Shown: in pieces, positions 18,697-53,475 of the stretch
How the letters are laid out: every line of letters starts with the position of its first letter
Position numbering within the stretch: position 1 is the stretch's first letter
Source of the DNA: a phage
Direction: 5' to 3' (one strand)
NCBI GenBank assembly: GCA_012813795.1
Contig: GCA_012813795.1_4087.1
DNA: 64,000 bases
Notes under the pieces: model-generated
The model's input: the letters and a program-made list of their open reading frames with translations, nothing else
What the model was told of the DNA's origin: nothing
Databases searched by the model: none
Made by a program: the position numbers and the translations under genes

Positions 18697-19465
<769 letters not shown>

Positions 19466-19468
19466 ACA

Positions 19469-19601
<133 letters not shown>

Positions 19602-19602
19602 A

Positions 19603-19702
<100 letters not shown>

Positions 19703-19746
19703 ATAGGCACATACGGGTCTGCTTTTAAGCTACTGATTCGGGAATC

Positions 19747-19792
<46 letters not shown>

Positions 19793-19799
19793 CGTTCTT

Positions 19800-20018
<219 letters not shown>

Positions 20019-20027
20019 TAATACCCT

Positions 20028-20429
20028 TTAGTAGTTTAAGTCAGCGGCGTTGAACACACCGAGTGAAGTCTTACCACGTAGTTTAGGGGAAATGACATAT
20101 TTTGTCAATGTCTTTTTACCGTACCAGTACTCGAAATCTTTTTCTTCTACATACGGATTAGGGAAATCCCATTTGCGTTCTTTATGAATTTGCTTGGCCT
20201 GGACTTGAAGCTTTTCAACTTCATCTGGTGGTACAGTATCTACATTATTAAACTGCATGTACATACCTTTTAACCCATCAAGAATTAATTTTTCAGTTTC
20301 TTTAACTAATGTAATCTTTTCGATTCCAGTACTGATATTCATGTAGTCATCTACATAACCATTCCAGATAACAATCTCTGGATTACCTTCGATTCCCTGA
20401 AGCATCTTGATCAAGTCATTCTTTTTCAT
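20028..20429 (-). CDS. hypothetical protein
   Basis: 133-aa ORF. Confidence 0.55.
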   Translation of the reverse strand: MKKNDLIKMLQGIEGNPEIVIWNGYVDDYMNISTGIEKITLVKETEKLILDGLKGMYMQFNNVDTVPPDEVEKLQVQAKQIHKERKWDFPNPYVEEKDFEYWYGKKTLTKYVISPKLRGKTSLGVFNAADLNY

Positions 20430-20437
20430 TTGAATTC

Positions 20438-22078
<1,641 letters not shown>

Positions 22079-22263
22079 ATCACCAACTTTAATTAAAAAA
22101 ATGGATGGTGACGCTTTTAAACGCCGCTGTTAATTCAGCTTTATAACCACCCGTTTTAACTTGCCTTTCGGCTACCTTGACGTGGGGCGTACAGGCTACT
22201 AAAAGCAACTTCTGTAAACATATTTCCACGCCTTACCATTTTCATTATATCAGTACTTTTATC

Positions 22264-23385
<1,122 letters not shown>

Positions 23386-45439: not shown

Positions 45440-46567
45440 TTACTTGTTAGCTTTGTCAGCAATTTCGCGAAGAGTTTCTTCAAGTTCGTAGGACAACTGT
45501 GCAATTTCATGTTTAGCACGTTCACGTTCTTCCTTACCTTTCTTCTCTTCAATCAGTACTGCTTCGATGCTATCAATCATTGTTTTGTGTACGTTACGCA
45601 ATGTTTTAATATCCACAATACCACGGTTATTAGCTTTAGCAGCATCTAACATATTAGTTGCTACCATTTTGGAGTTCACTTCAAGTAAACGGTTAGTTTC
45701 ATTATCAATCAAATTACCCAACTCGTTATCTTTGCGTTGGCGTTCAGAAATCAATTGTTCTGCTAGTTGTGATTTCCATGCAGGGATGACAACAGATTTC
45801 AGATCTTCAAATTTAGATACAGTGTTTAGATTCACTTTCTTCATACTCATCAGACGAGGGCCACTAAGCTCACACATCATGATAAGACGGCGAATCTTAT
45901 CTTCCTGTTTAGACAATGCTTCACAAATCATCTTCTGCTCTTGGATTGCGAAAGAATCCACATCAGGGTTCGCTTGCATTTCTTCCAGTTTAGCATCTTG
46001 AGTTTTTGTGACTTGTTCCAATTCAACCAGCGTATCGCGTAATTCAAATAGATAGGCTTTATTCTCATTGTAAGCAGTATCCAACCACTCACATTCACTA
46101 TGTTGGCGATTGATACCAACCTGGAGTGTGTTCATGATTTCATCAATCTGCTCTTTACTATTCTTGTACTGATCACCAACTTTCTGTTTTGCATTGACAA
46201 AGAGTTTTTTGACCCAACCTACAATTGATTTATCATCTTGTAGACTGTCAATATCAACAGCACGGGTTAGGGATAAAATTGTGGTAATTGATTTACCAAA
46301 TTCAGTATTGTCATCAGTGACGTTCACTTTTGACATGATTTCATCAGCCAAACGTCCTACACCTGCACCAGCAGTTGTTCCAATGGTGTTAATGTTCTGA
46401 ACAGTTAAAGACATAGTGTTACCTTTTGTATCTTTCAGTACAGGTAACGTTTTAGCCTGTTGGTCGAAAATATCACTCGCATCAAAAGTATTACCTTTGG
46501 TTTTGGTTGTAGTACGCTTAGTAGTTTTGGTAGTTGCTTTTTTTGGGTTGATTTCTTTCTCGGACAT
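45440..46567 (-). CDS. coiled-coil protein with K/T-rich N-terminus (possibly TelA-like)
   Basis: 375 aa, long heptad-rich regions; TelA assignment is a guess. Confidence 0.5.
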   Translation of the reverse strand: MSEKEINPKKATTKTTKRTTTKTKGNTFDASDIFDQQAKTLPVLKDTKGNTMSLTVQNINTIGTTAGAGVGRLADEIMSKVNVTDDNTEFGKSITTILSLTRAVDIDSLQDDKSIVGWVKKLFVNAKQKVGDQYKNSKEQIDEIMNTLQVGINRQHSECEWLDTAYNENKAYLFELRDTLVELEQVTKTQDAKLEEMQANPDVDSFAIQEQKMICEALSKQEDKIRRLIMMCELSGPRLMSMKKVNLNTVSKFEDLKSVVIPAWKSQLAEQLISERQRKDNELGNLIDNETNRLLEVNSKMVATNMLDAAKANNRGIVDIKTLRNVHKTMIDSIEAVLIEEKKGKEERERAKHEIAQLSYELEETLREIADKANK

Positions 46568-47878: not shown

Positions 47879-48685
47879 TTTGTTGTTCTTCTCTCTGTAC
47901 CAGTTGAAACCCTTAACTGGTGGGTACTTCTCATCTTTAGGTGGCTCCGGCATATCATACACCGTTGCATTCCTAAATTTTAAAATGTAAACTTCCATAA
48001 GACGTATGATAGCATAGTTTAAACATTTCTGTGCTCTTTCTTTCCAAAAATGTTTATATGGTTCTGGACAGTTTAGATAGTCCAGTTTATACATACCCAT
48101 TGCTGCTTGTACAAATCTCTGTGCTGAAAATTTACGTTTGTCAACCTTACTGGCTCTGTACTGATCAGATGTCCAGCTTTGTACCCCAGGTAAATGACAA
48201 AACAAATCAAACTCTACCATAGAACTAAAATATTCATTATGACCGTGTAGTTCACCATAGAACAATGCCTCATTGACAGTCTCATATAATGAAAAATTCA
48301 TATGTATATGTTCATTATCAAAGATGTTCTTTAGTTCTTTGTACGTCTCTGGTACTGGTGGTTCAGGTAACAACTCACCAAATGTCTCAATGCACCAGAT
48401 TTTCCACAATCCTTTTGTGAATTGTACTTCACGTTCTCTATCACTGTCAATATAAAATGTTTTTTCATTAATGAAAACCTTTCGTGCCATATATGCTTTA
48501 AAGATTGCATCGGGATCGATATCATCACGTTTAATGTCATCCCATCCCTTACCAATCCTTGAAATCTCAAATCTACGCATATACATTCTACAAGCTAAAT
48601 CTTTTGTAGTACTGCGACGATACTTTTCATCCTGAACCAATTTAGTACTTTCATGTAGAGATTTCAACATATTTAAAATTCTCAT
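47867..48685 (-). CDS. hypothetical protein
   Basis: 272-aa ORF. Confidence 0.55.
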   Translation of the reverse strand: MRILNMLKSLHESTKLVQDEKYRRSTTKDLACRMYMRRFEISRIGKGWDDIKRDDIDPDAIFKAYMARKVFINEKTFYIDSDREREVQFTKGLWKIWCIETFGELLPEPPVPETYKELKNIFDNEHIHMNFSLYETVNEALFYGELHGHNEYFSSMVEFDLFCHLPGVQSWTSDQYRASKVDKRKFSAQRFVQAAMGMYKLDYLNCPEPYKHFWKERAQKCLNYAIIRLMEVYILKFRNATVYDMPEPPKDEKYPPVKGFNWYREKNNKGTC

Positions 48686-49362
48686 CTTAGCACCAGATAC
48701 TTCCCATCTCTACCAACTATATACTGATTACCACTACGTAGTACTGTATAGTTTTCACCTAATATAGAACTAAGTCTTGATGTATCTAATTTGGTTTCAG
48801 TTTTCAGCATAGATTTGATGTATTCCTCAGATGCAAAACCACTACCAGTGCTATAACATAAATCACCATACACGGTTTGTAGTTTTAGGTTATTACCCTC
48901 TTTGAGTACAGTTATACCAGCATAATCCAAAAACTCGCTTAGTGCATCTGGAGTTCCTAATTCTACACGTTGTTGAACTTCATCAAAGTCTACATCAATT
49001 GGATCATTAACACCATAAAGCTGAATTTTCCATCCAGGATTTGGACAAATGTTTTCAATAGTCTTAATTAGAGTTAGTAATTTTTCTGGAAACTCTGCAT
49101 TACGTTCCATTTCAACAAATACTTGATATCTACCATCTAGGTTAGGTGTTTCAGCAGCTTCAGTATCTACCGCAGTGATTGGTGATTTCTCAATGAAAGA
49201 GGACAAATCATATGCAGCATCAAAATTATTCAATACCTGAAACATAACAACGATATTACCATCTTCAATCTTGGGTGTATATTCATCAACACTGATAATA
49301 GGGTAAATCAGATCTTTAAGTACTTCAGGACGTAATCCCTGTTCATTTAATTGTTTAGACAT
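48682..49362 (-). CDS. hypothetical protein
   Basis: 226-aa ORF. Confidence 0.55.
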   Translation of the reverse strand: MSKQLNEQGLRPEVLKDLIYPIISVDEYTPKIEDGNIVVMFQVLNNFDAAYDLSSFIEKSPITAVDTEAAETPNLDGRYQVFVEMERNAEFPEKLLTLIKTIENICPNPGWKIQLYGVNDPIDVDFDEVQQRVELGTPDALSEFLDYAGITVLKEGNNLKLQTVYGDLCYSTGSGFASEEYIKSMLKTETKLDTSRLSSILGENYTVLRSGNQYIVGRDGKYLVLR

Positions 49363-50066: not shown

Positions 50067-50659
50067 TTATTAACATAATCAAAGCCGTTGTTATGCTTGT
50101 ATTCATGGTTATGACACGCACACATCATAACAGCAGGTATATCCAACTCTATAGCCGTTTCTATATTTTTAATATAATCGTCAATCAAAAATTTAACGTC
50201 ATATTGAGCTTTTAATTTCATTAGTGCTGATTTTTTGGATTCATACATTTCAATGATAATGATATCATCAAAAATACCCTCACCAAAGACATTAATGAGA
50301 TTCACATTACGGAGAACTTCTCCGTGTCCGAATGTACCCGATTTAGTCAGTACTACAAATTTATCATATGGGAACTTATCACGTAATTCTTGCATAATTC
50401 CAACCGTGTTATGTTCTACTGGGTCAAGTAGACCAAACTCATAAGAACGATGGTTGAAGTGTTTTAGAATCTCTTGCACTTCAGGTTGAGTAATTCCACC
50501 CAACCACTGACACAAATCATATTTTTCTGGATATGGTGTTTCTGGATGAATATCATAATGTTCTTTAACAAAATTATATAGACCACCAATGTGGTCCAAT
50601 AGCACTTCATCACAATCCCATACTACACAACGTTGTTTCATTACATATTTCCTGAACAA
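50021..50659 (-). CDS. HAD-superfamily 5'(3')-deoxyribonucleotidase-like (NT5C-like)
   Basis: N-terminal VVWDCDEVLLD (HAD motif I DxDxV). Confidence 0.55.
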   Translation of the reverse strand: MFRKYVMKQRCVVWDCDEVLLDHIGGLYNFVKEHYDIHPETPYPEKYDLCQWLGGITQPEVQEILKHFNHRSYEFGLLDPVEHNTVGIMQELRDKFPYDKFVVLTKSGTFGHGEVLRNVNLINVFGEGIFDDIIIIEMYESKKSALMKLKAQYDVKFLIDDYIKNIETAIELDIPAVMMCACHNHEYKHNNGFDYVNNWSELRLKIYELMKK

Positions 50660-51594
50660 ATCAAGTCAATTTCACATAGTAATGCACTCAGGTTCATCTC
50701 ACGATCAGAAACTGTTGATTGTTTGACAACTGCATCACGGATTTTAACCTTGATTTTCATTAGTGTGATTTCATCAGTACTGAACATTTCTGCATTACGA
50801 TACAGATACGAGAAAAACGCATCCATTTCGTCATCAGGGATATTTTGAACAATCTGCTCACGCATCTGACGAATGTTTCCCGCCTTTAATGCATCAACGA
50901 TTGCCGTGCGATACCCAGCAGAATTCTCAATACTGTCTTCTAGTTTTACTAGTTTACCATCAACTACTGAACTCTGCAATACGTTTAATGTTTTGCGGAA
51001 GTCAGGGTACGATGCATTGATGTATTGCTGCACTTGATCAATACTTTCTTCTGATGATAAATCTACACCCTCAGCTAACAGTACGTTGATGATACGGGTC
51101 ATAAACTGTTCCATATCATGCTTCTCGATTGTAATTACTTGCACACGAGAAATAATAGGTTTCAAAATTTTATGTGGCTCATTACTGGTTAGAATAAAAC
51201 GAGCATTCTCGTGATAATCTTCCATGACACGCTTCAGGCTACCTTGTGCTTTGTGGTTCATCTGTTCCATTTCTTCCAGAACAAATACACGATAACGTCC
51301 AAAACATGATAGTTTTGCGGCAGCGTCAATCTTATCACGCACAGCATCAATACCCTCATCTGACATGTTTAGAGTTGTTACATCACTTGGGTCCAGGTGA
51401 CCATTAGCTTCAAGTCCATTTAGTAGTACTTTAATCGCTGAAGTTTTTCCTGTACCAGCGGGACCAAAGAATCCAATATGTGGAATATTGCCAGTACAAA
51501 TCCATTCTTCCATCTTTTTACGAAGAGCATCATTTTTGAAAACGTAATCTTCTAGGGTTTGTGGGCGATATTTTTCAGTCCATAGTGTAGTCAT
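50641..51594 (-). CDS. 44: clamp-loader ATPase large subunit (T4 gp44-like, AAA+)
   Basis: Walker A GPAGTGKTS, Walker B VLEEME, SRC-like ISRV motif; ~T4 gp44 size. Confidence 0.75.
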   Translation of the reverse strand: MTTLWTEKYRPQTLEDYVFKNDALRKKMEEWICTGNIPHIGFFGPAGTGKTSAIKVLLNGLEANGHLDPSDVTTLNMSDEGIDAVRDKIDAAAKLSCFGRYRVFVLEEMEQMNHKAQGSLKRVMEDYHENARFILTSNEPHKILKPIISRVQVITIEKHDMEQFMTRIINVLLAEGVDLSSEESIDQVQQYINASYPDFRKTLNVLQSSVVDGKLVKLEDSIENSAGYRTAIVDALKAGNIRQMREQIVQNIPDDEMDAFFSYLYRNAEMFSTDEITLMKIKVKIRDAVVKQSTVSDREMNLSALLCEIDLICSGNM

Positions 51595-51937: not shown

Positions 51938-52261
51938 TTAACGTCCAAATGTTTGTACTGAAGTACGTGGGTCTTCATCGGAAACCAAAGATACTGCGGC
52001 TGGGTAATCAACTAAGTTTAATTGAACACCATCAACCTCAATAGTTCTGGACCAGCGACCGTGGTCAATAAGAATCCATTGACCTTCTTTGATATCAGTT
52101 ATATCTTCACCAACTGAATAAACTTTAGCCCAACGACAACGAATACCACGAATTTTACCGTCATCATTTGTTAAAACAATTCCACCAGCAGTTTTTCGTT
52201 CGCCATGTTCTAAATCAGTAACCAGTACTTTTCCCTTACATGCTGTCATAACTTTAGACAT
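51938..52261 (-). CDS. co-chaperonin GroES/Cpn10-like (T4 gp31 analog)
   Basis: KVLVTDLEHGERKTAGGIVL...GDKV-like mobile-loop and beta-barrel pattern of Cpn10. Confidence 0.6.
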   Translation of the reverse strand: MSKVMTACKGKVLVTDLEHGERKTAGGIVLTNDDGKIRGIRCRWAKVYSVGEDITDIKEGQWILIDHGRWSRTIEVDGVQLNLVDYPAAVSLVSDEDPRTSVQTFGR

Positions 52262-52266
52262 TTGTA

Positions 52267-52629
52267 TTACTCCTGATCTTTAGTTTTTGCTCTGCGTGGT
52301 GCTTTCTTCTCTTCAGGTGAAACTGAAGGATCAACTGTTTCTTCGTTTTGTACAACGACATGCTCAACTTCAAAGCTTGCATCATCCCAACCATCATCAG
52401 AATAATCAGTGCTTTGTGCCTGATGTTCTGGAATATAGTCAGGAATTTGCATTTCACGTTCTTTCTCTTGAAGTAGTTCTTCACGAGTTTTAATTACAGT
52501 TCCACCAGAACCAATTTTATCACCACGAGCATTTAGTTTAGCATTACCCAATGCAACCTGATGTTGGTTCTGATATTTTAGCATATCCATATCAATGATA
52601 GTGCCACGATAAGTAGTATGTTTTGACAT
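52267..52629 (-). CDS. hypothetical protein
   Basis: 120 aa; extended -10 TGTGATATAAT upstream. Confidence 0.5.
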   Translation of the reverse strand: MSKHTTYRGTIIDMDMLKYQNQHQVALGNAKLNARGDKIGSGGTVIKTREELLQEKEREMQIPDYIPEHQAQSTDYSDDGWDDASFEVEHVVVQNEETVDPSVSPEEKKAPRRAKTKDQE

Positions 52630-52688: not shown

Positions 52689-53231
52689 TTACCATTTCAG
52701 AAATTCGTTCACATCGAGATCATACTTCAATGAGTCAACCATATGCAAACCAATCAGAAACAGACAATATGAGGCTACAGAACTACCACGCCCTAAGCCC
52801 CAGAAGATGTTGTGCTCTTCCATATAATCTACCAACCATATCATACAACGCAATAGCTTTGTCATATTATATTGTTCGTATAAATCAATTTCGTATTCCA
52901 CACGCTGTTTTGCTTCAGGTGTGGAACACTTTTGTAAAAAGAATTCTCTTAGATTGATATTGTCATACATTGGATCATAACGCCATAACTCATGATTACT
53001 ATCATGGTCAATTGTATAATCCAACATACGTTGCTCTAGTCCAAATTTTTTACAGTTATCGTTAAACTTCAAACGCTCTTGTTCATCTATATCTTGTAAT
53101 TGTAAGTACTGAATATCTGAACCACAATTCATAGCATAAACTACAGCATTTAAATTACATTTAACATCACCATTGGGACTTATATATCTGTTTCCTTGAA
53201 CTTTCATTTGTCTTTTTACTATCCTCTTCAT
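52689..53231 (-). CDS. stand-alone DnaE (Pol III alpha)-like palm-domain fragment
   Basis: RVEYEIDLYEQ...WGLGRGSSVASYCLFLIGLHMVDSLKYDLDVNEFL parallels DnaE RLEYELDVI...GPGRGSGAGSLVAYAL.ITD.DPL.FDLLFERFL; ends just before where the catalytic aspartates would be. Confidence 0.55.
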   Translation of the reverse strand: MKRIVKRQMKVQGNRYISPNGDVKCNLNAVVYAMNCGSDIQYLQLQDIDEQERLKFNDNCKKFGLEQRMLDYTIDHDSNHELWRYDPMYDNINLREFFLQKCSTPEAKQRVEYEIDLYEQYNMTKLLRCMIWLVDYMEEHNIFWGLGRGSSVASYCLFLIGLHMVDSLKYDLDVNEFLKW

Positions 53232-53475
53232 CTGATAGATAAGAATTCATATCAAAAATACATGGATCAGCTTCCTCGTATGTATCTTTCTCTTTTCTAC
53301 CTTGTCGTAAAGTCATTTCTTCATAGCACTGATTCAGTACTATCTGCATGTTACCAATGATAGAATCACTCATACCAGCGGCACGAGCGGAACTAATACG
53401 TAAACTTTGATCATTAATCTTTTGTTGGAGTTCTTTATCACTCATACCAGAAGGGTCATAAAATGGATTAAACAT
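53167..53475 (-). CDS. hypothetical protein
   Basis: 102-aa ORF. Confidence 0.45.
   Translation of the reverse strand: MFNPFYDPSGMSDKELQQKINDQSLRISSARAAGMSDSIIGNMQIVLNQCYEEMTLRQGRKEKDTYEEADPCIFDMNSYLSDEEDSKKTNESSRKQIYKSQW

Follow-up and report, generated by a model that had tools for sequence, protein, structure and literature searches.

A palm fragment that ends before the catalytic aspartates

In the stretch of phage DNA analysed here (64,000 nucleotides, referred to as the window), one open reading frame (ORF) encodes a short protein resembling part of the palm of DnaE, the alpha subunit of DNA polymerase III (Pol III alpha), and stops just ahead of the catalytic aspartates. What does a phage do with such a fragment? 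The sequence-only reading of this DNA had proposed either a domesticated DnaE module, for example a decoy, or a decaying remnant of a gene. We refer to the product of the ORF and to its orthologues as the N-unit, whose features are the following:

52689..53231, minus strand: N-unit ORF in its longest reading, 180 aa, stop codon included
52935..53207, minus strand: N-terminal region of about 90-95 residues, predicted to form a small alpha/beta domain
52695..52934, minus strand: palm segment, residues 100-179, equivalent to about 319-397 of E. coli DnaE
52779..52799, minus strand: GS loop G-L-G-R-G-S-S, residues 145-151, codons read directly

Translation probably starts at the ATG at 53207, which gives a protein of 172 aa, since the internal methionine of MKVQGNRY is the start in most N-unit orthologues as well as in the annotation of Escherichia phage A4. 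A further argument for this start is provided by an ORF of 102 aa (53167-53475, minus strand; phrog_15348, E=2e-48), which overlaps the 5' end of the 180-aa reading by 65 nt. This small ORF carries no annotation in phage A4, which has a gap between A4_83 and A4_84.

The likeness to the DnaE palm was confirmed by profile searches, which gave significant matches. The Pfam profile DNA_pol3_alpha (PF07733) matched residues 100-179 over its positions 16-95 of 260, with E=8.5e-10 and 39.1 bits, the curated cutoff being 23.9 bits. The single sequence was only weakly similar to solved Pol III alpha chains (E~0.35, placed on residues 318-392 of E. coli DnaE), and a profile of 50 homologues matched the Taq and E. 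coli Pol III alpha chains of the PDB with E=0.009-0.05. When the family profile was aligned to residues 319-397 of E. coli DnaE, hhalign returned E=3.3e-6. The aligned blocks are RVEYEIDLY, GLGRGSSVASYCLFLIG and DSLKYDLDVNEFL in the N-unit, which correspond to RLETELQVI, GPGRGSGAGSLVAYALK and DPLEFDLLFERFL in DnaE, respectively. Moreover, the N-unit belongs to PHROG 11127 (full-length match, E=2.4e-86) and is 98.9% identical to A4_84 of phage A4, annotated as 'DNA polymerase III alpha subunit'.

The palm segment is made up of two helices, a strand with the GS loop, and two further helices. GLGRGSS (145-151) aligns with GPGRGSG of E. coli DnaE and, as judged from this sequence match, is the hG[GS] triphosphate-binding loop of the Pol-beta-type nucleotidyltransferase fold. 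The position of the stop codon had also been read correctly: the C-terminal end of the N-unit corresponds to N393/P394 of DnaE, seven residues short of D401 and ahead of the D401/D403 pair, and the catalytic aspartates (D401, D403 and D555 in E. coli) are missing from the polypeptide. When modelled alone, the N-unit reached a moderate confidence (pLDDT 72), the lowest values (54-62) being those of its most conserved 40 residues; the low confidence of this motif region fits the need for a partner. No sequence relative was detectable for the N-terminal ~95 residues, which are less conserved than the remainder, W83 being invariant there.

Conservation and genomic setting of the N-unit

The N-unit was found by tblastn in 95 phage records, with hosts including Escherichia, Klebsiella, Salmonella, Erwinia, Yersinia, Xanthomonas and Vibrio, as well as Pseudomonas (PA5oct), Agrobacterium (Atu_ph07), Sinorhizobium, Salicola and Stenotrophomonas. 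In a collection of 5.8 billion proteins, the 120 closest listed clusters at 90% identity were 112-187 aa long, mostly 172 aa. An exhaustive search of 1.84 billion representatives (50% identity clusters) with the family profile gave 2686 matches, of which 466 had E<=1e-30; the best 150 of the 2686 were 156-196 aa long, and nearly all of these reached, at their own C-terminus, the final profile position or the one before it. When 50 diverse homologues were aligned, nearly every member ended at EFLK plus 0-3 residues. Eighteen residues of this alignment are invariant, and the invariant pattern includes W83, R110, E114, L127 and the string G-x-G-R-G-S-S-V-x-S-Y-x-L-x-L-x-G-x-H...S, in which the loop residues G145, G147, R148, G149, S150 and S151 are all contained. 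Compared to its phage A4 orthologue, the N-unit gene of the window differs silently in five codons and by replacement in two, and there is no frameshift. This pattern of conservation indicates, at the sequence level, purifying selection on a protein of fixed length.

These observations bear directly on the proposal that the ORF is a decaying pseudogene, the remnant of a full-length dnaE once taken from a host. The N-unit indeed spans only about 7% of cellular DnaE, is devoid of the catalytic aspartates and has been labelled 'truncated' in the CBB genome paper. A decaying gene would, however, hardly keep the same length and end point from Escherichia phages to those of Agrobacterium, Salicola and Vibrio and across hundreds of metagenomic clusters, together with 18 invariant residues and, relative to phage A4, only two replacement changes beside five silent ones. 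The conservation pattern of the family excludes this reading, to which we assign a negligible probability.

The segment 52000-54000 of the window is 95.8% identical to phage A4 (ON286972) over the 2 kb compared. Phage A4 is a 355-kb Asteriusvirus, a Rak2-like jumbo phage; placed from this match, the window corresponds approximately to 262.8-326.8 kb of its genome, in reverse orientation. The N-unit gene lies between a gene for a 795-aa virion protein and a chaperonin gene, and its flanks suit a T4-related replication and morphogenesis region, with topoisomerase II subunits among the flanking genes according to the annotation of the A4 orthologues. Its neighbours in the window are:

52267..52629, minus strand: downstream neighbour of 120 aa, function not assigned (phrog_14844, E=1.5e-54)
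51938..52261, minus strand: GroES-like co-chaperonin gene (Pfam Cpn10, E=6.9e-5)
50641..51594, minus strand: RFC/gp44-type clamp loader large subunit (DNA_pol3_delta2, E=1.3e-13; AAA, E=1.4e-10; Gp44_lid, E=8.7e-4)

The 120-aa protein, whose C-terminal half is acidic, belongs to a family whose member in the distant Pseudomonas phage PA5oct (gp195, E=3e-11) likewise lies immediately downstream of the N-unit, and a gene of similar size takes this position in XacN1. There might be a functional link between this neighbour and the N-unit. Both phage A4 and XacN1 have the N-unit, the small ORF, a chaperonin-like gene and, further on, the clamp loader in this order, and the neighbourhood is kept at least partly in PA5oct, where the last gene (gp193) is annotated only as hypothetical. 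The main text of the PA5oct transcriptomics paper gives no per-gene timing. The downstream gene had been described as unrelated to DnaE and equipped with its own promoter. The first half of this description stands; as to the second, a sigma-70-like site (10/12) is present at 52700-52671, ahead of 52267-52629, but promoter-like sites in this region are not above chance frequency.

The T4-type replisome that the sequence-only reading ascribed to this phage is indeed represented, by the clamp loader in the window and, in the relative A4, by the family-B polymerase A4_18 (DNA_pol_B, E=7e-21; exonuclease domain, E=4e-22). Several other genes were recorded in passing. Phage A4 is annotated with two GroES-like co-chaperonin genes, A4_23 (segment L008, 30162-30461) and A4_86; the copy beside the N-unit is the counterpart of A4_86, and the Cpn10 match (E=7e-5) was checked for this window copy only. 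The window also carries a cluster of five tRNA genes (19131-23260, minus strand: Thr-TGT, Asn-GTT, Met-CAT, Ser-ACT and Ser-TGA), among which the tRNA-Ser with anticodon ACT (20972-21063) is unusual for a bacterial system, and a TelA-like toxic anion resistance protein (45440-46567, minus strand; PF05816, E=4.9e-38), an unusual phage gene.

The complementary half and the junction

The remaining parts of DnaE, which the sequence-only reading had suggested seeking elsewhere in the genome, were found outside the window, in the relative phage A4, by a partner search that covered most of the A4 genome. We refer to this protein and its homologues as the C-unit:

ON286972, 242008-242646: C-unit A4_42, 212 aa, annotated 'hypothetical protein', in the helicase/primase/DnaQ-exonuclease cluster of phage A4

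A4_42 lies about 31 kb (31.5 kb) from the N-unit gene of phage A4. No C-unit was found by tblastn within the 64-kb window, which stops ~20 kb before the position expected from the A4 alignment. Other candidates for the missing half were rejected. The only ORF of the window matching a regular expression for DxD/KxDxLG (48682-49362, minus strand, 226 aa, DPIDVDFDE) had no Pfam match, and the annotation of its A4 orthologue reads 'structural protein'; the resemblance of this ORF to PDFDVDF was judged to be due to chance. The 'putative nucleotidyltransferase' A4_502 is an RlaP RNA-repair transferase, and A4_450 and other hypothetical proteins of phage A4 gave no DnaE signal.

The match of A4_42 to the Pfam profile DNA_pol3_finger is faint (E=0.19), and its full-length match to PHROG 11778, 'DNA polymerase', reaches E=3e-106. 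Its motifs correspond to those of E. coli DnaE as follows:

RTDIDIDF: MPDFDVDF of E. coli (D401/D403)
AHNSGVHF: KHAGGVVI of E. coli
YQKVDILSQ: LVKFDFLGL of E. coli (D555)
AMIRPGK: ALFRPGP of E. coli
FKKPHAYAYS: FNKSHSAAYA of E. coli

Among 45 homologues of 190-220 aa, residues D16, D18, D20, H48, G51, K80, D82, R149, P150, K152, H190 and Y194 are invariant. The C-unit profile matched only DnaE chains in the PDB, with four colinear motif alignments (E=0.055), and hhalign placed it on residues 544-641 of E. coli DnaE with E=0.0056. Its sequence significance against single DnaE sequences is marginal, and the case is carried by the colinear motifs together with the fold match. The AlphaFold2 model of the C-unit was confident (pLDDT 93, pTM 0.79), and the top 12 Foldseek matches in the PDB were all Pol III alpha (Taq, M. 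tuberculosis and E. coli), 8 of the 12 with a probability of 1.00 and E=2e-3 to 9e-3; the next match stood at E~2. In this model, a tight beta-hairpin is predicted at the position of the thumb, along with a mini-fingers domain of ~125 aa. No match to the Pfam domains PHP, HHH_6 or OB was found in either unit.

When the two units were concatenated, a single hhalign match to residues 319-419 of E. coli DnaE ran across the junction (E=1.1e-6), in an alignment where eleven pairs were inferred from equal-sized metagenomic contigs or from phage names and the remainder were paired by rank. It puts TDIDIDF on PDFDVDF (D401/D403), the only insertion being the first seven residues of the C-unit. Given that the match is continuous across the junction, this alignment puts the split point in the loop that follows the last helix of the nucleotide-binding half and precedes the DxD strand, without loss or duplication.

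The two units also occur together, the C-unit in 96 phage records and the N-unit in 95. The tallies per host genus in the two sets are almost identical: Escherichia 34/34, Pseudomonas 11/11, Klebsiella 11/10, Salmonella 8/8, Erwinia 8/8, Xanthomonas 4/4 and Yersinia 4/4; in addition, seven metagenomic N/C pairs lie on contigs of equal size. The genes belong to different gene blocks. In the comparison of seven phages, which cover the range of the family, they are never adjacent and never fused, and they lie 14-224 kb apart: 14 kb in Stenotrophomonas phages CM1 and RAS14, 31 kb in A4, 34 kb in RaK2, 44 kb in PA5oct, 116 kb in SCTP-2, 182 kb in Atu_ph07 and 224 kb in Phosso. As they are apart and unfused in all phages compared, the split is old and stable.

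A third protein may be relevant. The replication cluster also holds A4_35 (segment L008, 40862-41680), located some 4 kb upstream from the C-unit, a DnaQ-like 3'-5' exonuclease (RNase_T, E=6e-14) that is extended at its C-terminus. We regard it as a candidate proofreader in trans for the minimal Pol III alpha, itself devoid of a PHP domain.

A proposed two-gene minimal C-family enzyme, its rivals and its relatives

We consider it likely that the product of the ORF is the N-terminal subunit of a minimal nucleotidyltransferase of the C family (Pol III alpha-type) that is encoded by two genes and found in the Rak2-like ('group 2.2') jumbo phages. Both halves are homologous to Pol III alpha, they meet in a seamless junction, every catalytic motif is conserved and the two genes co-occur. 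From these we infer the following physical assembly, catalytic activity and biological role. The N-unit would give the first half of a Pol-beta-fold palm, namely two helices and the first strand together with the invariant G-R-G-S-S loop. In ternary complexes of Pol III alpha, the GS loop grips the triphosphate of the incoming nucleotide, and by homology the GRGSS loop of the N-unit would bind the triphosphate of the incoming dNTP. Without metal-binding carboxylates, the N-unit would be non-catalytic on its own. The C-unit would bring the DxD strand (D16, D18), the third aspartate (K80-x-D82) and the mini-fingers with RPxK and KKxHxxxY, whose residues would touch nucleotide and template. The two units most likely associate non-covalently and complete one beta-sheet, with the active site at their interface. 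The resulting complex of ~385 aa would extend a primer on a template beside the T4-type family-B replicase, possibly as an auxiliary, lagging-strand or repair polymerase. The pair has none of the thumb, PHP, clamp-binding, (HhH)2, OB and tau-binding domains that cellular Pol III alpha possesses, and given that the thumb, clamp-binding, HhH and OB modules are lacking, templated polymerase activity is not assured and another kind of nucleotidyl transfer is possible.

This proposal has to be weighed against the domesticated module, that is, an N-unit acting independently of any partner as a decoy, inhibitor or adaptor on a component of the host or phage replisome. The separate gene, which never adjoins that of the C-unit, its own conserved neighbourhood (phrog_14844, the GroES-like gene and the clamp loader) and the ~95-residue N-terminal region, for which no DnaE counterpart can be detected by sequence, would all suit such a protein. 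The invariant residues, however, are those of an active-site GS loop and its flanking helices and not of a surface patch, and the conserved segment is predicted with low confidence when modelled alone. In the E. coli holoenzyme, residues 319-397 of Pol III alpha are not known to contain a binding site for any partner. The claim of a stand-alone decoy is also disfavoured by a partner with exactly the complementary, missing catalytic part of the fold, present in the same phage genera and essentially the same phages, and we hold it to be improbable.

A partnership of the two units leaves room for different chemistry. The Pol-beta fold superfamily includes many transferases that are not polymerases, and the pair could be a primer-independent synthase, a tailing enzyme or a nucleotide-signal synthase instead of a templated polymerase. 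The absence of all thumb, clamp-binding, HhH and OB modules speaks for this, as does the complete family-B replicase with its exonuclease domain that the phage already possesses. Yet RPxK and KKxHxxxY, the counterparts of FRPGP and FNKSHxxxY, are invariant and C-family-specific polymerase motifs, the fold of the C-unit matches only Pol III alpha and no other nucleotidyltransferase, and its gene is located in the replication gene cluster, all of which makes a non-polymerase quite improbable. Split DnaE genes whose products are joined by trans-splicing exist in cyanobacteria, which could suggest that the phage halves are likewise joined post-translationally by a split intein, or else at the RNA level. 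But the N-unit stops right at the DnaE-homologous EFLK(W), leaving no intein N-fragment of ~100 aa, and the C-unit begins 8-15 residues before DIDIDF, with neither an intein C-fragment nor an HN/Cys junction; no Hint/intein Pfam domain was found in either unit. Joining of the halves is, on these grounds, highly improbable.

The two-chain enzyme that we favour resembles several known systems to different degrees. It shares with bacterial Pol III alpha (DnaE/PolC; PF07733 and PF17657) the GS loop, the DxD plus D carboxylates, FRPGP and FNKSHxxxY; the bacterial protein, however, is a single chain of 1160 aa, whereas the phage version has ~385 aa in two chains and an extra, unrelated N-terminal region of ~95 aa. 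As in the cyanobacterial split DnaE, a Pol III alpha catalytic subunit is derived from two distant genes, but the cyanobacterial split point is another one and has intein fragments at the junction, while the phage halves are intein-free and presumably remain two chains. Two-piece family-B polymerases (split gp43), with adjacent genes, have reportedly been described by Petrov, Karam and colleagues in some T4-related phages. They are a precedent for a phage polymerase made of two polypeptides, although their fold is unrelated (family B) and the genes discussed here are spaced by 14-224 kb.

The system itself is known. Iyer, Anantharaman, Krishnan, Burroughs & Aravind 2021 (Viruses 13:63; PMC7824862) described a phage-specific minimal Pol III alpha split into distant genes, one for an N-terminal NTP-binding protein and one for a C-terminal protein that binds Mg2+ and the template. 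The phages concerned possess a family-B polymerase as well, and the authors suggested that the minimal Pol III alpha synthesizes one strand, or serves in repair, alongside the family-B enzyme. The ORF of the window is an ordinary orthologue of their N-terminal unit, with nothing essential different, and that work (PMC7824862) had already presented the family together with its split architecture and phyletic distribution. Added here are the identification of A4_42 as the partner in phage A4, the seamless junction against E. coli DnaE, the apparent replacement of the thumb by a beta-hairpin, the models in which a confidently predicted C-unit contrasts with a partner-dependent motif of the N-unit, and the conserved neighbourhood of the N-unit. 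In PHROGs and in several GenBank records, both halves already carry the label DNA polymerase or Pol III alpha, and annotations across the system are inconsistent, ranging over 'hypothetical', 'truncated', 'membrane protein' and 'DNA polymerase'. The split minimal Pol III alpha has so far been predicted from sequence analysis only (2021), and our literature search found no experimental paper on this system.

All bacteria rely on C-family polymerases as their replicases, and these are normally large proteins with many domains in a single chain. A two-chain version of ~385 aa, kept in hundreds of jumbo-phage lineages beside a full T4-type replisome, defines a minimal C-family core and raises the question of why a phage with a full family-B replicase needs a minimal Pol III alpha. 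We also entertain the rather unlikely possibility that the two-piece enzyme is not an ordinary second polymerase, the separate location and separate regulation of the genes for the nucleotide-binding and the metal-binding half acting as an assembly switch, or the product of the stripped-down enzyme being something else, such as primers, tails on modified DNA or a nucleotide signal. If this were true, the phage enzyme would preserve, in present-day phages, the minimal catalytic core that cellular Pol III alpha was built from.
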